Shown here in pieces: positions 11,345-26,484 of a stretch of DNA of 29,574 nt. The notes under the pieces were generated by a model. That model worked only from the letters and a program-made list of their open reading frames with translations. It was not told where the DNA came from and did not search any database. The position numbers were made by a program, and so were the translations under genes. Source of the DNA: a virus (Duplodnaviria > Caudoviricetes); IMG/VR virus record IMGVR_UViG_3300038321_000170, positions 1 through 29,574 of that record. The stretch is one strand, 5' to 3'. The first letter of the stretch is position 1; each line of letters opens with the position of its first letter.

Positions 11345-13525
11345 ATGTATCGATTGTTTTATGATGGTGAGGTGCTCCATGATCCGCGGGACGATAAACG
11401 CCGGGTGACCGAGTGTAAGGTGGAGTTGGAGTCCAATACGGCGGGGACCCTTACGTTTAAAATAGCGCCAGCGCATCCGCTTTTCGGGAAGCTCCAGGCC
11501 ATGGATACGGGCCACGAAGTGACCGTGATGGATGATACTGTAGAGGTTTTTCGCGGCCGGATCAAATCCGACGGAAAAGATATGCAGACCGTAACGAATG
11601 TGACTTGCGAAGGCCAATTAGCGTATTTAAATGACAGCGTTGTGCGGGCCTATGGAACGTATGCGTCCGATGATGAAAACTGGACCGTTGTGAAGGGGGA
11701 TAATATCTTTCGCTGGTACGTCAGCCAGCACAATGGCCAGAGCGATGCGAATAAACAATTTGTCATCGGTAAATGCGAAACGGGATACGGATTGACCCGC
11801 AGCAGCACCCAGCACCCGACGACGGGACAGGAGATCAAGGAAAAATTACTGGATGCTCTGCCTTGTTACATTGACTGTTACATGGACAATGGTGAGCGCA
11901 TACTTGACCTGCTGGAGTTTGGCGGAGCAGATGCAGAACAATCCATTGAATTTGGAACAAATTTGCTGGACTATGCCACTACTCGGGACGCATCAAACAT
12001 CATTACTGATATCATCCCGACAGGGACAGATAACGACAACAATGCGATTGATATTACGTCCTTGCGCGATGGGGATTATGGGAGCTGCTACAAGGAGGGC
12101 GACCATGTATCGTTTTCTGCGGGCGTTAATTTGTACGGGCACATCACCGAAGCGCGCAGTTATGATGGGACAACACCATCAGAGTTGCTGAATGCTTCGA
12201 TAAATGATTTACAGACGTCTTCTGAGGTAATAGAGAGTGTCAATATCAAAGCTGTGGATCTGCATAATGTGGATCCGACGGTGAAACCGATTCGTCTAAA
12301 TGAATGGGTGCTAGTAAGTTCTAAGCCCCACGGAGTGTATCAGCCCATGATGTGCGTGAAGATGACGATTGATATAAATGATCCGACTCGGACAGTATAT
12401 ACCTTTGGTGCAACGCTTCCGTCGCTGACATCAGACAGTGCTATGAAGGTGGCGCAGAACAGGCAACGGCAGGAAGAAATGATTGTGGCGGCAGCGGCTA
12501 TAAGTGTAGATGCCAAGGCAGCGGCTGAATTGGCTACGACAGCACAGATGGCTGCGAATACAGCCCAGACTGCGGCTAACACAGCCCAAAGTACAGCCGA
12601 TACGGCAAAAACCACAGCAGACACGGCGCAAGGTACTGCTAATACGGCAAAAACCACAGCAGACACGGCGCAAACCACAGCAGACACGGCGCAAAGCACA
12701 GCCGATACGGCAAAAACCACAGCAGACACGGCCACATCTAATCTGTCCGCATTAACAACACGCGTTTCCACAGCAGAGAGTAAGTTGACTGCAACCGCCT
12801 TGACAACGACAATATCCAGTGCCCTTACCGGTAGCAATGCTATTTCCACCACCAAATTTGTCATGGATAAGGATGGCCTGCTCATCAAAAGTGGTGGATT
12901 ATCTATCCAAAACAATGCGGGGACGACGGTGCTTAGCGCAGACGTGGCGGGCAACCTGACATTTACTGGGGCGCTGAATGGGGCTACTGGTACTTTTCGT
13001 GGGGCACTTACTGCCTATAATTCCTCAGGTAAATTACTGATGCAGGCTAGTGCGGGTAGGATTAATTTTTATGATGGAGCCAACAATGTCGTTACTGGGT
13101 ATGTTGATTCGGATCTGACTGCCAACACCAATAATATAAGGATAAACGGGAACGGCCTGCTTGCTTTATCTGTTTCGGGTACGCAAGTTGTGGGTATTGC
13201 TCAAAATCGATGCAATATTTATAAACCAATTTTATATCAAGGGGCATTGGTGACGATGCCGAGAATCTATGCGGGGACTGCTGTGCGTGACGCCGGCGGA
13301 GGAAATAGTGTGCAACTTATATCACTCTCTCAAATCAATAGCTGGTTTGGGATTAATAATGCAAGTGCTGTAAACACAGCAGTTTTTGTATCGAATGGCG
13401 ATGGCGCGGCTTCTAATGCACACTGCCAAGATGCAACTTTTTTAGGTGGAGAATGGTGGGCAACGTTCGACAGAACGGGCGTTACGACAATCCGTATCAA
13501 TTATTTAGTTGTCTGTTGGGCTTAA
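11345..13525 (+). CDS. Tail hub/spike (Tal-like) with coiled-coil stalk and C-terminal extension
   Basis: N-terminal phage tail endopeptidase-like domain (AGTLTFKI, CEGQLAYLNDS, IEFGTNLLD), heptad repeats, beta-rich C-terminus. Confidence 0.8.
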   Translation: MYRLFYDGEVLHDPRDDKRRVTECKVELESNTAGTLTFKIAPAHPLFGKLQAMDTGHEVTVMDDTVEVFRGRIKSDGKDMQTVTNVTCEGQLAYLNDSVVRAYGTYASDDENWTVVKGDNIFRWYVSQHNGQSDANKQFVIGKCETGYGLTRSSTQHPTTGQEIKEKLLDALPCYIDCYMDNGERILDLLEFGGADAEQSIEFGTNLLDYATTRDASNIITDIIPTGTDNDNNAIDITSLRDGDYGSCYKEGDHVSFSAGVNLYGHITEARSYDGTTPSELLNASINDLQTSSEVIESVNIKAVDLHNVDPTVKPIRLNEWVLVSSKPHGVYQPMMCVKMTIDINDPTRTVYTFGATLPSLTSDSAMKVAQNRQRQEEMIVAAAAISVDAKAAAELATTAQMAANTAQTAANTAQSTADTAKTTADTAQGTANTAKTTADTAQTTADTAQSTADTAKTTADTATSNLSALTTRVSTAESKLTATALTTTISSALTGSNAISTTKFVMDKDGLLIKSGGLSIQNNAGTTVLSADVAGNLTFTGALNGATGTFRGALTAYNSSGKLLMQASAGRINFYDGANNVVTGYVDSDLTANTNNIRINGNGLLALSVSGTQVVGIAQNRCNIYKPILYQGALVTMPRIYAGTAVRDAGGGNSVQLISLSQINSWFGINNASAVNTAVFVSNGDGAASNAHCQDATFLGGEWWATFDRTGVTTIRINYLVVCWA
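12538..12735 (+). repeat. Imperfect 21-nt tandem coding repeats (TADTAQ/K heptads)
   Basis: ACGGCAAAAACCACAGCAGACACGGC at 12602, 12644 and 12707 (spacings 42 and 63). Confidence 0.9.
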
Positions 13526-16908: not shown

Positions 16909-17121
16909 ACAGTAACATGGATTAAAGCGGCAGGCGTTAGAGCGGTTAAGACTGTGGCACAGACCGCCGTGGCAACCATCGGCACTGCCGCAGTGATGGG
17001 TGAAGTCAATTGGATTATGGTGGCATCCGCTGCTGGATTGGCCGGGGTGCTATCTATCCTGACCAGTGTAGCAGGGTTGCCAGAAATTAAGGGGGAAAAT
17101 GATGAGTTTAAACGGAATTGA
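16897..17121 (+). CDS. Holin, r1t family
   Basis: [22 protein letters not shown]...[11 protein letters not shown], two TM segments, precedes endolysin. Confidence 0.92.
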
Positions 17122-18508
17122 TATCGCGAGTTATCAGGCCGGGATTGATTTAGCTGCTGTCCCAGCGGATTTTGTCATCGTCAAGGCGACACAGGGGACG
17201 GGCTACGTTAATCCCTATTGTGATGAGCATTATCATGCGGCAAAAGCCGCAGGTAGGCTTGTTGGTGTCTATCATTATGCTGGTGGCAACGGCGCAGAGG
17301 CAGAGGCTGAGTTTTTTGTAAACAATATCCGCGGTTACCTGGGAGAGGCGCTACTCGTGCTGGACTGGGAAGCGGCGGAGAACAGTGCCTTTGGCAGTGT
17401 TGACTACGCCAAAGCATTCTTGGACCATGTGTTTGCGCTTACTGGCGTAAAGCCGCTGATTTACATGAGCTCCAGCGTTGTGACCGGCTGCGACTGGTCC
17501 GCTGTGGCCGCTGGGGACTACGGCCTATGGGTTGCCGGGTATTATAATGGCTACAACGCGATGTCGTACAATTCAGACGCGCCGATGCAAAATATTGCTT
17601 ATTGGGGCTGTGCGTCCATGTATCAGTACACGAGTTCGGGTCAACTGCCCAATTATGGCGGAAGCTTGGACTTAGATGTATTTTACGGTGATGAAAGCGC
17701 TTGGCGGGCCTATGCCGGCACAGCACAAGCCCCATCAGACCCCGAGCCGCCAACGGGAGATGTGCCTATCACGGATCGCCCAATCTGCAATGAGCAGCAT
17801 TTCGGCATTTGGGTGCGCAATGTCCATGACAATGTGGGCGTATCTAAAGTTATGGCAGCTGTATGGTCCGCTTTTGGTGGACAGGACGACCTGGTCTGGT
17901 ATGATATGGCTCCGGCCCCTGACGGTGAGGCAGATAGCTATGCGCTATCCATTGACGTGGCCAAGCATGGTGGCGTCAGCGACGGGAACAACATCATCGC
18001 GGATGTATACGCCTTTGACGCAGCTGGAAACAGGCGTTGCCTTGGCCGGTGTACAACAGAAATGACGACTCGGATTGATAGCCCACTAAAACCAATGGGG
18101 AACGTGATCAGTAAGGCGCACGTTCAAAATTTTGGCTGGCTGGATACCGTGGGCGAGGGTGAAACGGCTGGTACCACGGGCAAGGGGTTACGACTAGAGG
18201 CTCTAGCAGTGCGGTCCTGTATTGATGGGATTATGGTCAAACTGCAAGGCCATGTTGAGGATTACGGATGGATGCATACCATTAACCAGGACCAGGCAGT
18301 CGGGACGATTACACAGTCGAAACGACTGGAAGCGATCAAGCTTACATTGGAAGGCGAAAAGGCGGATCGGTACACCATTACCTACCGTGCCCACGTCCAA
18401 GGAATTGGCTGGATGGATTGGGTTTCCGACGGCACGATCGCCGGTACGACCGGCAAAGGCCTGCGCATGGAAGCCGTGCAGATAAAAATCGAAAAGAAAG
18501 CGGCTTAA
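17099..18508 (+). CDS. Endolysin: GH25 muramidase + Bsp-like domain + ChW repeats
   Basis: [24 protein letters not shown] (GH25); [15 protein letters not shown] (Bsp-like); three HVQ/E..GW...GT...LR(L/M)EA repeats (ChW). Confidence 0.92.
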
Positions 18509-18514
18509 AGCCCC

Positions 18515-18542
18515 TTGATTAATTTTGTGTATTATATAATAT
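18515..18542 (+). promoter_or_regulatory. Possible sigma70/sigmaA promoter for the ncRNA unit
   Basis: TTGATT 18515-18520 with TAATAT at 16-nt spacing (TATAAT at 14 nt). Confidence 0.45.
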
Positions 18543-18610
18543 AGAAGAAACGGAACGATACAACCCCATCCGCCAGAGCAGACAGGACATTGAAAGAAAG
18601 GAAGGACTAC

Positions 18611-18640
18611 ACAGAACAATAACACTAGGTGTATTTAAAT
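18611..18640 (+). CRISPR. Solitary 30-nt repeat resembling clostridial type I-B repeats (not an array)
   Basis: ACAGAACAATAACACTAGGTGTATTTAAAT vs remembered consensus GTTGAACNNTAACATNAGATGTATTTAAAT; intact 3' ATTTAAAT handle. Confidence 0.7.
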
Positions 18641-18689
18641 AAGTTGGAAAATAGTACGACTATTTTAAAACCGAACCATATTCCACATC

Positions 18690-18716
18690 CCCCTAGCTTC
18701 GGCTGGGGGCTTTTTT
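18690..18716 (+). terminator. Rho-independent terminator
   Basis: CCCCTAGC-TTCG-GCTGGGGG-C-TTTTTT. Confidence 0.9.
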
Positions 18717-18751
18717 ATTGCAAAAAATAAAAAAAATAATCTTAAAAACAC

Positions 18752-18780
18752 TTGACATTTGCCCTCTATGGGTATATAAT
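18752..18780 (+). promoter_or_regulatory. Consensus early promoter P1
   Basis: TTGACA-17 nt-TATAAT with A-rich UP region. Confidence 0.92.
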
Positions 18781-18832
18781 ATACTTAAAGATAAAGAGAG
18801 AGACAAGGAAAAGTCCAAAACACCAGAAAGAT
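18770..18832 (+). repeat. 63-bp perfect direct repeat copy 1 (-10 box plus leader)
   Basis: Identical to 19385-19447. Confidence 0.92.
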
Positions 18833-18838
18833 AAAAAA

Positions 18839-19306
18839 ATGAAAAGATTAGAATATAGCCAAGAAGTACACGATTTATTATTAGAAATAGCAGAAGAAGG
18901 GTCTTGTTATTGGAGATACCAAGGCTCCCATCACAACGGATTAATCCCCGTGGGACACAAATCCAACGAAAGAATTTTTGAAGGTGAAGAACCCGAATTT
19001 GAAGAAGAAGGGTGCTCCTGCTACGATAACCCTTGGCAGCTGCTAGAATACTTGGCAATCGACGGACAGGATTTAGACAAAACAGATGTGGTCCTGTTTG
19101 TTGGGGATCACGTGGGCTACGGAATCGTTGAAGAGGATGTAGTTGAAGTTACAGAAGAGTCCGACGTTATGTACTCTTTAAGTCTTAGAGATTTTTATAA
19201 ATTTGCTTTTAATGTTCCAGAAGACCTATATTGGAATACTTATAATGTAAAAGAAAAATTCTGCGATTATACAGAAGAGTTTATAAAAGAAGTTTTTAGC
19301 AAATAG
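18839..19306 (+). CDS. Highly acidic early protein (155 aa), candidate anti-defence factor
   Basis: Track start 18752 is the -35 box, so ATG 18839 is the plausible start; about 36 D/E vs 12 K/R by hand count. Confidence 0.75.
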   Translation: MKRLEYSQEVHDLLLEIAEEGSCYWRYQGSHHNGLIPVGHKSNERIFEGEEPEFEEEGCSCYDNPWQLLEYLAIDGQDLDKTDVVLFVGDHVGYGIVEEDVVEVTEESDVMYSLSLRDFYKFAFNVPEDLYWNTYNVKEKFCDYTEEFIKEVFSK

Positions 19307-19366
19307 GGGCAACTCATAATTTTAGGTAAAAAGTTCAATAATTTTTAAAAAAAATATAAAAAACTA

Positions 19367-19395
19367 TTGACATTCCCCCTCTAGGGGTATATAAT
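19367..19395 (+). promoter_or_regulatory. Consensus early promoter P2
   Basis: TTGACA-17 nt-TATAAT; spacer dyad CCCCT-CT-AGGGG. Confidence 0.92.
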
Positions 19396-19447
19396 ATACT
19401 TAAAGATAAAGAGAGAGACAAGGAAAAGTCCAAAACACCAGAAAGAT
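19385..19447 (+). repeat. 63-bp perfect direct repeat copy 2
   Basis: Identical to 18770-18832. Confidence 0.92.
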
Positions 19448-19793
19448 GAAGACAATGAATAATTACTACGAAAAATTGGACAAAGAACTTGGAAAAGAAT
19501 TACCAAGATTGGAAACGACAGAAATGTTTTACTTTACAGCCGGGCAAGTAGCCCGGTACATATTAAAGCAAGCACCGGCAGGACGGCATTACAATAAGAT
19601 TAATCCGTTGCTCGCTGCGAAAACGAGCGGGGAGCTAAAGAAAAAGATTTTAACAGCGTTTAAATCTAACAATAACATAGACCAAAATGAACGGTTTGAA
19701 CGTGCGCTTGCGATCGTCCTCGGATGGAAACAAGACGATCCGGTGGATGAAGAAACATTAATTTTGGGATACACGACAAAATCCGCATTTTAA
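19446..19793 (+). CDS. Stand-alone Cas8b(Csh1) C-terminal/Cas11b-like protein, candidate anti-CRISPR
   Basis: Collinear motifs FYFTAGQVARYIL, INPLLAAKT..ELKKKI...F, RFERALAIVLGW, VDEETLILGY match the remembered Csh1 C-terminal pattern; start could be ATG 19455. Confidence 0.72.
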   Translation: MKTMNNYYEKLDKELGKELPRLETTEMFYFTAGQVARYILKQAPAGRHYNKINPLLAAKTSGELKKKILTAFKSNNNIDQNERFERALAIVLGWKQDDPVDEETLILGYTTKSAF

Positions 19794-19854
19794 ACAAATT
19801 AAGCTGACCTACCGGCTACACGGGGAGAAAGATAAAACAATATGGGAGGAATAA

Positions 19855-20055
19855 TTGGACAACAATCTTATCCCGCTAACACAGTGGACAAAAATGAACG
19901 GTCTTAATCCACGCTATTGCCGTCGAAAGGCGGCACGCGGTGGATACAAAACAGCAGTTAAAATTGGTAGAGATTGGATGATCGACAAAAATGAAAAAAA
20001 TGTTGATCTAAGGGTAAAAAGTGGGAAATATAAAAATTGGAGGAACCGAAAATGA
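19855..20055 (+). CDS. Small basic HTH DNA-binding protein (HTH_17/excisionase-like), Aca candidate
   Basis: LIPLTQW...GLNPRYCRRKAARG..KTAVKIGRDWMID; SD GGAGG before TTG. Confidence 0.75.
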   Translation: MDNNLIPLTQWTKMNGLNPRYCRRKAARGGYKTAVKIGRDWMIDKNEKNVDLRVKSGKYKNWRNRK

Positions 20056-26118: not shown

Positions 26119-26436
26119 TGTCCCAAGATTCTGCCCAATTGTCCCAATTTGTCCCAAAGCTTTGGGACACTTTTTAAGCCCGCAAACCCGCATTAACAGT
26201 GAGTTTGAGAACATTTAAAAATAAATGTCCCAATGTCCCATGTTTTCGCGAGGGGACATATATATACGTAAAAATAAAAAAATAATTAAATTATCAAAAA
26301 ATAATATTTTTGCCTATATAGAAAGCTGTTTTTTATTGGGACATTGGGACATCTTAAAAATAACGGCTGTAACCCGCATGGTTAAGCCATTTAAAATGTC
26401 CCAATCATTTGGGACACGTTGGGACATTATGGGACA
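26119..26436. repeat. Iteron cluster, probable replication origin
   Basis: Six TGTCCCA and six TGGGACA around an AT-rich core, directly after the helicase gene. Confidence 0.8.
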
Positions 26437-26484
26437 TTTTAAATAATTAATAATTAAATATTTAAAATGTGAAAGGACGATAAT

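Follow-up and report, generated by a model that had tools for sequence, protein, structure and literature searches.

Gene setting of the locus

The window, which denotes the whole stretch of DNA that was analyzed (29,574 nucleotides), is the entire record, a 29.6-kb virus contig with a completeness estimate of 86%. Its genes for head, tail, lysis, and replication are of the siphophage type, and a scan of 31 ORFs showed neither an integrase nor a cas operon. The element under study sits between the endolysin gene and a small-gene block with two copies of a 12/12 promoter. Related contigs from seven different runs were aligned to this region, and four of them (X2, X5, X7, and X9) span the repeat. 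The features of the locus are as follows:

17099..18508, + strand: endolysin (GH25, Bsp-like repeat, three ChW repeats), the upstream landmark
18515..18542, + strand: candidate weak promoter TTGATT-16-TAATAT (8/12, found by regular expression, below the threshold of the promoter tool)
18560..18586, no strand assigned: rearranged segment; opposite orientation in X2, with which X5 and X7 agree apart from about 39 additional bases
18611..18640, + strand: repeat 1, type I-B, with a 4-bp stem ACAC/GTGT and the 8-nt handle ATTTAAAT at 18633-18640
18641..18669, + strand: pseudo-spacer, 29 nt, with a 5′ part like an I-B leader inverted-repeat arm; swapped in X2
18648-18666, + strand: perfect 8-bp hairpin within the pseudo-spacer (spacer positions 8-26)
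18670..18680, + strand: repeat 2 remnant, 11 nt, ACCGAACCATA; continues to repeat position 24 in X5
18690..18718, + strand: intrinsic-terminator-like hairpin (stem 18690-18709, cUUCGg with a UUCG loop, T-run); different in X5
18752..18780, + strand: sigma-70 consensus promoter (12/12), first copy within a 130-nt duplication
18839..19306, + strand: acidic 155-aa ORF of no family; closest Atlas clusters are viral hypothetical proteins
19367..19395, + strand: second consensus promoter (12/12), directly 5′ of the Cas11-like gene
19455..19793, + strand: Cas8b C-terminus/Cas11b homologue, AcrIB4-like, 112 aa, stand-alone; 0.8 kb downstream of the repeat
19855..20055, + strand: small HTH-like protein, 66 aa, with HTH_17/HTH_59-like clusters and no Pfam match

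The initial annotation had named a repeat, a hairpin, the ACCGAACCATA motif, and a cUUCGg terminator, and all of these parts were recovered at the positions listed above. No consensus promoter was called upstream of repeat 1. At the rearranged segment, X5 has a 64-base gap, and the arrangement in X2, X5, and X7 seems to form a terminator-like hairpin followed by a T-run, located between the weak promoter and repeat 1, as judged from piece lengths and loose ends. The window lineage has apparently lost this hairpin via a hairpin-loop inversion and a deletion between two GACAGG copies. Together with the promoter at 18515, the hairpin of X2, X5, and X7 could mark off a distinct RNA about 55 nt long. 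A CreT-like minigene upstream of the repeat was considered and rejected; an SD-like purine run is present, without a start codon at a usable distance.

The 130-nt duplication (84%) covers 18721-18850 and 19336-19465, each copy having a perfect promoter and an SD sequence. Joints in the related contigs skip or reorder genes between these duplicates, which suggests a shuffled early-gene cassette. Judging by its position as the first gene of the early block, the acidic ORF is a candidate for a further anti-defense protein, and the HTH-like gene downstream of the Cas11-like gene is possibly an Aca-type regulator of the cassette. Before this HTH gene, at 19800-19832, lies a short structured-looking motif common to many other contigs, where contig depth climbs and many pieces start or stop. 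Elsewhere in the window, a cluster of TGGGACA/TGTCCCA direct and inverted repeats follows the primase/helicase genes at 26140-26446 and looks origin- or operator-like, and a tail protein at 12512-12740 contains a 7-residue repeat derived from 21-nt tandem repeats.

The ChW-type endolysin points to a Bacillota host, and the host clue from a database search for lysin matches was mixed. Fermentation and digester metagenomes are the richest sources of matching DNA. Acetobacterium was tried as a host guess and found to be without support, and the A. woodii repeat belongs to another family. In IMG/VR, the Cas11-like protein retrieved no phage relatives; the lysin retrieved 18 distant loci (38-65%), none of which carries the element, and an exact 27-mer had no match; no close relative of the phage turned up in these collections. 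Rfam families likewise gave no match across the window.

Repeat family, layout, and spacer

The initial annotation had read the 30-mer at 18611 as a type I-B-like repeat and had proposed a search for natural relatives. Such relatives were found in type I-B arrays, the best identity among the array repeats collected being 25/30, and the main repeats of L026 and L027 reach 23-25/30. Array relatives retrieved by a relaxed-pattern search have spacers of 33-38 nt, and in plasmid records the arrays of this repeat family adjoin cas6-cas8b-cas7-cas5b-cas3-cas4-cas1-cas2. The family is clostridial type I-B with a PDLC01507-type Cas8b, combining a 30-nt repeat, I-B cas neighbors, and an 8-nt handle. With a profile built from 24 distinct array repeats, the 30-mer scored 28.9 bits vs 6.6 for the runner-up site in the window, and the best sites in 300 shuffled windows had a mean of 3.7 and a maximum of 17.2 bits; as the array repeats were found with patterns taken from the 30-mer, this test measures family membership rather than the outcome of an unbiased search. 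The adjoining cas operons and the margin over the shuffled maximum uphold the type I-B assignment.

Cleavage by Cas6 is predicted between 18632 and 18633, a position that we take from the canonical 8-nt handle. The handle proposed at 18633 is unchanged in all four related contigs covering the repeat, in which repeat 1 differs only at positions 6, 16, 17, and 22, mostly positions that also vary among array repeats. The outer stem pair is broken in X2 and X9 (T18632C), and the same change occurs in one L065 array copy.

The description of the repeat as solitary did not hold. The segment at 18670-18680, which had been noted to resemble the repeat 5′ end, matches the repeat start at 9/11, a score reached at 22 window positions (0.07%), and X5 keeps the second repeat to position 24. 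By hand reading, the substitutions and all 15 inserted letters of X5 past 18680 correspond to repeat positions 4-24, identical to the L060 array repeat; this extended second repeat is followed by a terminator that differs from that of the window. Only 11 nt of the second repeat are left in the window, X7, and X9, all of which therefore lack the 3′ handle. X2 matches through 18640, the last base of repeat 1, and then continues with 186 unlike letters including a TATAAT hexamer. Because X5 has a second repeat and the X2 sequence changes exactly at the repeat 3′ end, the element is regarded as a decayed two-repeat mini-array, whose ancestral form, as reconstructed from the aligned sequences, is a repeat, a 29-nt spacer, a 3′-broken repeat, and a terminator.

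The pseudo-spacer is readable as an open frame. None of the 364 natural spacers compared with it, which measure 33-38 nt, is as short or contains a perfect 8-bp stem. A self-folding spacer had been thought to favor a decoy, a view that the comparison weakens: at least equal folding was found in 28/364 natural spacers and 7/200 shuffles, the closing pair of the hairpin is broken in X5, and X2 has another spacer altogether. The spacer hardly differs among the window, X5, X7, and X9; its first base is variable. Conservation of the element does not exceed that of the lysin gene (in X5, 4 changes in 18581-18680 vs 13 in 767 bases).

Target searches gave negative results in each data set. In the window, where the initial annotation had found no match by eye, 14 matches to the pseudo-spacer were counted vs 15.4 expected by chance, and the palindrome is single, leaving neither a self target nor a second operator. 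No exact 20-mer of the spacer occurs in IMG/VR, nothing better than E about 3 was found in phage and plasmid records, and the seed search in a C. butyricum record gave no match. Against seven cas-upstream regions of non-host systems, seed matches did not exceed 10/12, with mismatches within the seed. The match of the X2 spacer in a gene of a 167-kb phage ends after 19 bases, has no TC/TT-type PAM, and comes close to the chance expectation estimated for that database.

In the array leaders of this family, the two arms of an inverted repeat lie near -79 and -175, as found in 15/16 leaders by a detection that required TGG. A function of such arms in type I-B is assumed on general grounds and by analogy with type I-F. 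Bases 2-14 of the spacer reach 12.2 bits when scored against the arm, equaled by 1/364 natural spacers in this post hoc test and at 25/29,554 window starts. In the L065 leader, which is outside the profile, 1.2 kb contains a single 10/12 seed match, which is again an arm. Read in the leader-arm register, most sequences have AAT or ATT at the PAM position, resembling the end of the repeat itself, and TCT, TCC, or TTT occurs there in three true arms among 20 sequences; TC/TT PAMs are reported for these I-B systems. Plain alignment of the window spacer with leaders is unremarkable, since 61/364 and 166/364 natural spacers align as well, and the idea that the spacer originated as a collapsed leader was dropped for this reason. 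Given the PAM position and the plain alignment, leader targeting is not the main claim. No leader-targeting viral RNA was found in the literature under one narrow phrase.

Recurrence in other phages and the Cas11-like neighbor

A search with the second-repeat motif revealed a like RNA layout in an unrelated prophage family, at six loci on five contigs (L058, L059, and L061-L064), which follow directly on lysis genes wherever the contig extends far enough to show them. These loci have a consensus promoter, a first repeat with 24/30 identity to that of the window, a 36-nt AT-rich spacer, and a second repeat broken off after position 23, followed by a terminator. The spacer of this family aligns with leader-proximal ends, 3/362 natural spacers scoring as high, and no leader match was found for it in plasmid and phage records. 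No Cas11-like ORF was detected within 3 kb of the element in this family, which would offer a clearer test case for the design than the window does.

The stem of repeat 1 carries a C15-G19 pair, where array repeats have T-A. In a count based on two scans permitting either stem pair and on four plasmid loci, C15-G19 was seen in 0/347 array copies (31 variants, 21 loci) vs 3/6 non-array lineages, namely L039, L043, and the L058 group; L041, taken as a chance match within a gene, was not counted. The enrichment corresponds to a Fisher p of 0.007, which is overstated because many array loci are near-copies. A C-G-only pattern retrieved no arrays in 185,579 genomes. The single match among these genomes, in Arsenophonus and without an array, was read as chance, as were two single C-G-stem matches in metagenome contigs, of which one lies within an ORF and both lack a second repeat. 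The predicted stem pairing probability is 0.89 for the window repeat and 0.39-0.42 for the other C-G repeats; among the six commonest array repeats, it is 0.00-0.04 in five and 0.42 in one. The recurring C-G change may make the phage repeats better Cas6 substrates than the repeats of the host itself.

The product of ORF 19455-19793 aligns with positions 435-550 of 559 of the PADLOC PDLC01507 Cas8b (E 5.7e-18). The gene has its own start, an SD-like site, and a consensus promoter, and lies outside any cas operon. Five close homologues were found, and the profile of the ORF retrieves 59 proteins, about half of which are 560-630-aa proteins matched at the C-terminus; all 19 of the long homologues scanned are PDLC01507 Cas8b. 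The ORF aligns with the last 128 aa of a C. butyricum Cas8b, a segment that begins at an internal SD and ATG, and an internal start within Cas8b is the source of Cas11 according to the available part of one report (bioRxiv 10.1101/2025.06.06.658234). The GQ and GY motifs are kept. Both this protein and the ten other short homologues stop before the basic tail, a feature that 82% of 33 Cas8b C-termini retain. The proposal that the mimic is less basic than the host Cas11 was discarded, the mean net charge over the aligned span being 1.0 vs 1.8. Stand-alone proteins, a label that rests on protein length for most homologues, group together with support 39 in a quick tree from which four repeat-like or short rows were left out.

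Recognized domain families did not capture this protein: Pfam and NCBIfam searches with the ORF, and a PDB sequence search, gave no matches, NCBIfam TIGR02591 matched 8/58 homologues, all under the cut-off, and no Pfam Cas family was found among 30 long homologues. A tblastn search of the phage collection returned a single match with E 1. Fold comparison used a second model (pLDDT 92.8), the first (pLDDT 47) being set aside. Foldseek gave no match at E 0.001; VIA comparison of the model with Cas8c C-termini gave Z 5.8 (rmsd 3.3, 98 aligned) and Z 5.6 (3.6, 93), and comparison with an I-B Cas11 gave Z 3.4 (4.1, 89). These modeled folds lend weak support to a Cas11 likeness. The top fold match was the uncharacterized PDB 3e0z (EUBREC_1070), with Z 10.2, rmsd 3.0, and 98 aligned; by this modeled comparison, 3e0z may be an unrecognized Cas11-fold protein.

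The presence of a Cas8b-C-terminus/Cas11 homologue so close downstream gives independent support to an anti-CRISPR role of the element. The RNA element and the Cas11-like gene are linked in the window only; in X5 they are on separate contigs, and the X5 and X6 joints skip the Cas11-like gene.

Proposed action, alternatives, and known systems

The preferred reading, to which a probability of about one half is assigned, is that the decayed type I-B mini-array yields a Cracr-type, crRNA-like anti-CRISPR RNA that loads Cascade, competes with immune guides, and represses a control site. The mini-array would be transcribed on the + strand and cut by the host Cas6b at 18632/18633, and the product, bearing the 8-nt handle, would load into the host Cascade, diverting Cas proteins from immune crRNAs. 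A short seed match without cleavage would then repress a host CRISPR-cas control site, either a cas promoter or an array leader. The Cas11-like protein would take the place of the host Cas11 in Cascade, as proposed for AcrIB4 in the available part of that work (10.1101/2025.06.06.658234). The pairing of RNA and protein is likely to weaken host type I-B immunity on two fronts. As AcrIB4 blocks target binding by Cascade, the mimic would also disable the guide, unless the spacer length protects it. A regulatory guide against a host promoter had earlier been named as the alternative to a decoy; the layout fits such a guide better than a RacrIF1-type decoy. The preferred reading draws on the repeat family, the two repeats of X5, the exchanged spacer of X2, the invariant handle, the recurrence in the prophage family, the C-G pair, and the Cas11-like neighbor. 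Weighing against it are the weak promoter, the terminator-like hairpin that seems to precede the repeat in X2, X5, and X7, the missing 3′ handle, the outer stem pair broken in X2 and X9, the ordinary conservation, the seed matches of at most 10/12 in seven cas-upstream regions of non-host systems, and the linkage of RNA and Cas11-like gene in the window alone.

A more elaborate version, in which the locus is a two-part cassette, is unlikely. Here, the leader-aimed, stem-reinforced mini-array would park Cascade on the host's own array, and the tail-less Cas11 mimic would disable full-length Cascades and spare the short-spacer complex. If this is true, a leader-aimed guide would block both pre-crRNA transcription and spacer acquisition, at an arm near -79/-175 for the window element and at the leader-proximal end for the second family, and the leader may then represent a new class of target. 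Should the argument from spacer length prove right, type I-B would show the same division of labor as AcrIF24 and Cracr.

A pure decoy of the Racr type, whose RNA only sequesters Cas6/Cas7 or the whole Cascade and whose spacer sequence is irrelevant, is rather unlikely. The firming of the stem predicted for the C-G pair, the perfect hairpin across the spacer, the exchanged spacer of X2, and the variable first spacer base are in keeping with it, as is the outcome of the target searches in the phage, IMG/VR, phage/plasmid records, and seven cas-upstream regions; a Cas11 mimic would, moreover, hinder any guide. The near identity of the spacer in four contigs and the two-repeat layout of X5 with its defined short spacer argue otherwise, and RacrIF1 acts via the part upstream of the cut, with a dispensable handle, whereas the handle is invariant here. 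This invariance, with changes falling mostly where array repeats vary, also tells against a decayed relic, i.e., a formerly working mini-array now functionless in the window lineage. The truncation of the second repeat in the window, X7, and X9, the weak promoter, the rearrangement at 18560-18586, and conservation not above that of the lysin gene would all fit such decay, but a new terminator has been acquired at the right place and the neighboring Cas11-like gene is intact under a consensus promoter; a relic is judged improbable.

The mini-array might instead borrow the host Cascade-Cas3 against a competing phage or plasmid, a use of viral mini-arrays that is described in the available part of bioRxiv 10.1101/2023.03.03.530964. 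The spacer swap at the repeat boundary, the open frame of the spacer, and the 19-base match of the X2 spacer in the 167-kb phage gene would suit this explanation. It is nevertheless very doubtful: at 29 nt the spacer is shorter than every natural one, neither an IMG/VR 20-mer, a phage or plasmid hit better than E about 3, nor a self target was found, the X2 match is near chance with no TC/TT-type PAM, and a neighboring anti-Cascade protein would counteract such a guide. A mini-array of this kind would be expected to have a spacer of full length and an almost complete, PAM-flanked match in another mobile element. A role at the DNA level, in which the repeat and its leader-like motif bind Cas1-Cas2 or record a past off-target leader integration, is least credible and highly improbable. 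The leader-arm likeness spans the repeat-spacer junction, the arm consensus starting with AAT like the repeat end; binding of Cas2 to the inverted repeats of the leader is described for type I-F, and the prophage-family spacer aligns with leader-proximal ends (3/362). Only one arm is present, at the wrong distance compared with natural arms, the plain spacer-leader alignment is unremarkable, and the terminator, together with the promoter in the prophage family, points to RNA.

Among known systems, Cracr is, in the available part of its report, a viral crRNA-like RNA that represses Cas/CreT and competes for Cascade (bioRxiv 10.1101/2024.10.29.618823). The element is Cracr-like by layout, as far as this comparison goes: a repeat-like unit, a short 29-nt spacer, and a degenerate last repeat with a terminator are found in a virus, outside a cas locus and beside a putative protein anti-CRISPR. 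It differs in that the partner is a Cas11 homologue, not AcrIF24, and in the likeness of the window spacer to a leader motif; "leader" is a word that the available Cracr main text does not contain (10.1101/2024.10.29.618823). The defining match of a Cracr would comprise at least 9 PAM-proximal bases, to a host cas or creT promoter or to the spacer of a host CreR/CreA. Neither a PAM-flanked promoter match nor a cognate CreR/CreA was found here, the regions compared being non-host ones. I-B Cracr candidates are predicted in the same source, whose table of 219 candidates may include relatives of the window element (bioRxiv 10.1101/2024.10.29.618823).

Type I-B regulatory mini-arrays are described in the Clostridium phages c-st, phiSM101, and phiCp-D and in a Fusobacterium phage (bioRxiv 10.1101/2023.03.03.530964, available part). 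They share with the window element the subtype, two repeats, a shortened spacer, and acr-like neighbors. Those mini-arrays match host mini-arrays 5′ of cas6 over 15 seed bases, whereas no such match was found for the window element, which belongs to another phage group and has a Cas11-like neighbor. As phage I-B regulatory mini-arrays are already in print there, the element is not a new kind.

The Racr/SRU elements, in the available part of their report (PMC10651486), are likewise repeat mimics, intergenic in phages, near putative acr genes, and predicted Cas6 substrates. The best identity of the window repeat to the repeats collected in this analysis is 25/30, in contrast to at least 90% for SRUFinder, and since a second repeat exists, the element falls outside the definition "solitary, no partial repeat within 100 bp". 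In RacrIF1 the active part is upstream of the cut and the handle is unnecessary, whereas in the window it is the handle side that seems to be the product under conservation; the available Racr main text names no I-B example (PMC10651486).

AcrIB4 is a Listeria homologue of the Cas8b C-terminus that blocks target binding by Cascade (bioRxiv 10.1101/2023.06.24.545427, available part). Compared by description, the protein of the window resembles it as a small stand-alone Cas8b C-terminal homologue that a mobile element carries 3′ of its lysin gene; it differs in that the reported homologues are all from Listeria, whereas this one is in a ChW-lysin phage beside a mini-array. According to the available parts of the three reports on RNA inhibitors, the phage crRNA-like inhibitors tested are of types I-F, I-E, I-C, and V-A, and those of I-B are predictions (10.1101/2024.10.29.618823, PMC10651486, 10.1101/2023.03.03.530964). 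Relative to these sources, three features appear new, namely the Cas11-like partner, the C-G pair in the stem, and spacers that resemble leader sequence, with the proviso of possible relatives in the Cracr table. For the Cas8b family used in industrial clostridia, the locus provides an RNA and a protein of type I-B that lie close together and can be tested as a pair.

Further non-array I-B repeat units were seen in virus records at L039:~3000, L043:~3000, L033:~3000, and L040:~110, with 23-42-nt gaps to degenerate repeats and with terminators. Degenerate CreR/CreA-like repeats lie 5′ of cas6 at L026:320-520, where they overlap a 40-aa ORF, and at L053:9600-9800. A long run of degenerate, short-spaced repeats follows cas3 at L053:16880-17950.
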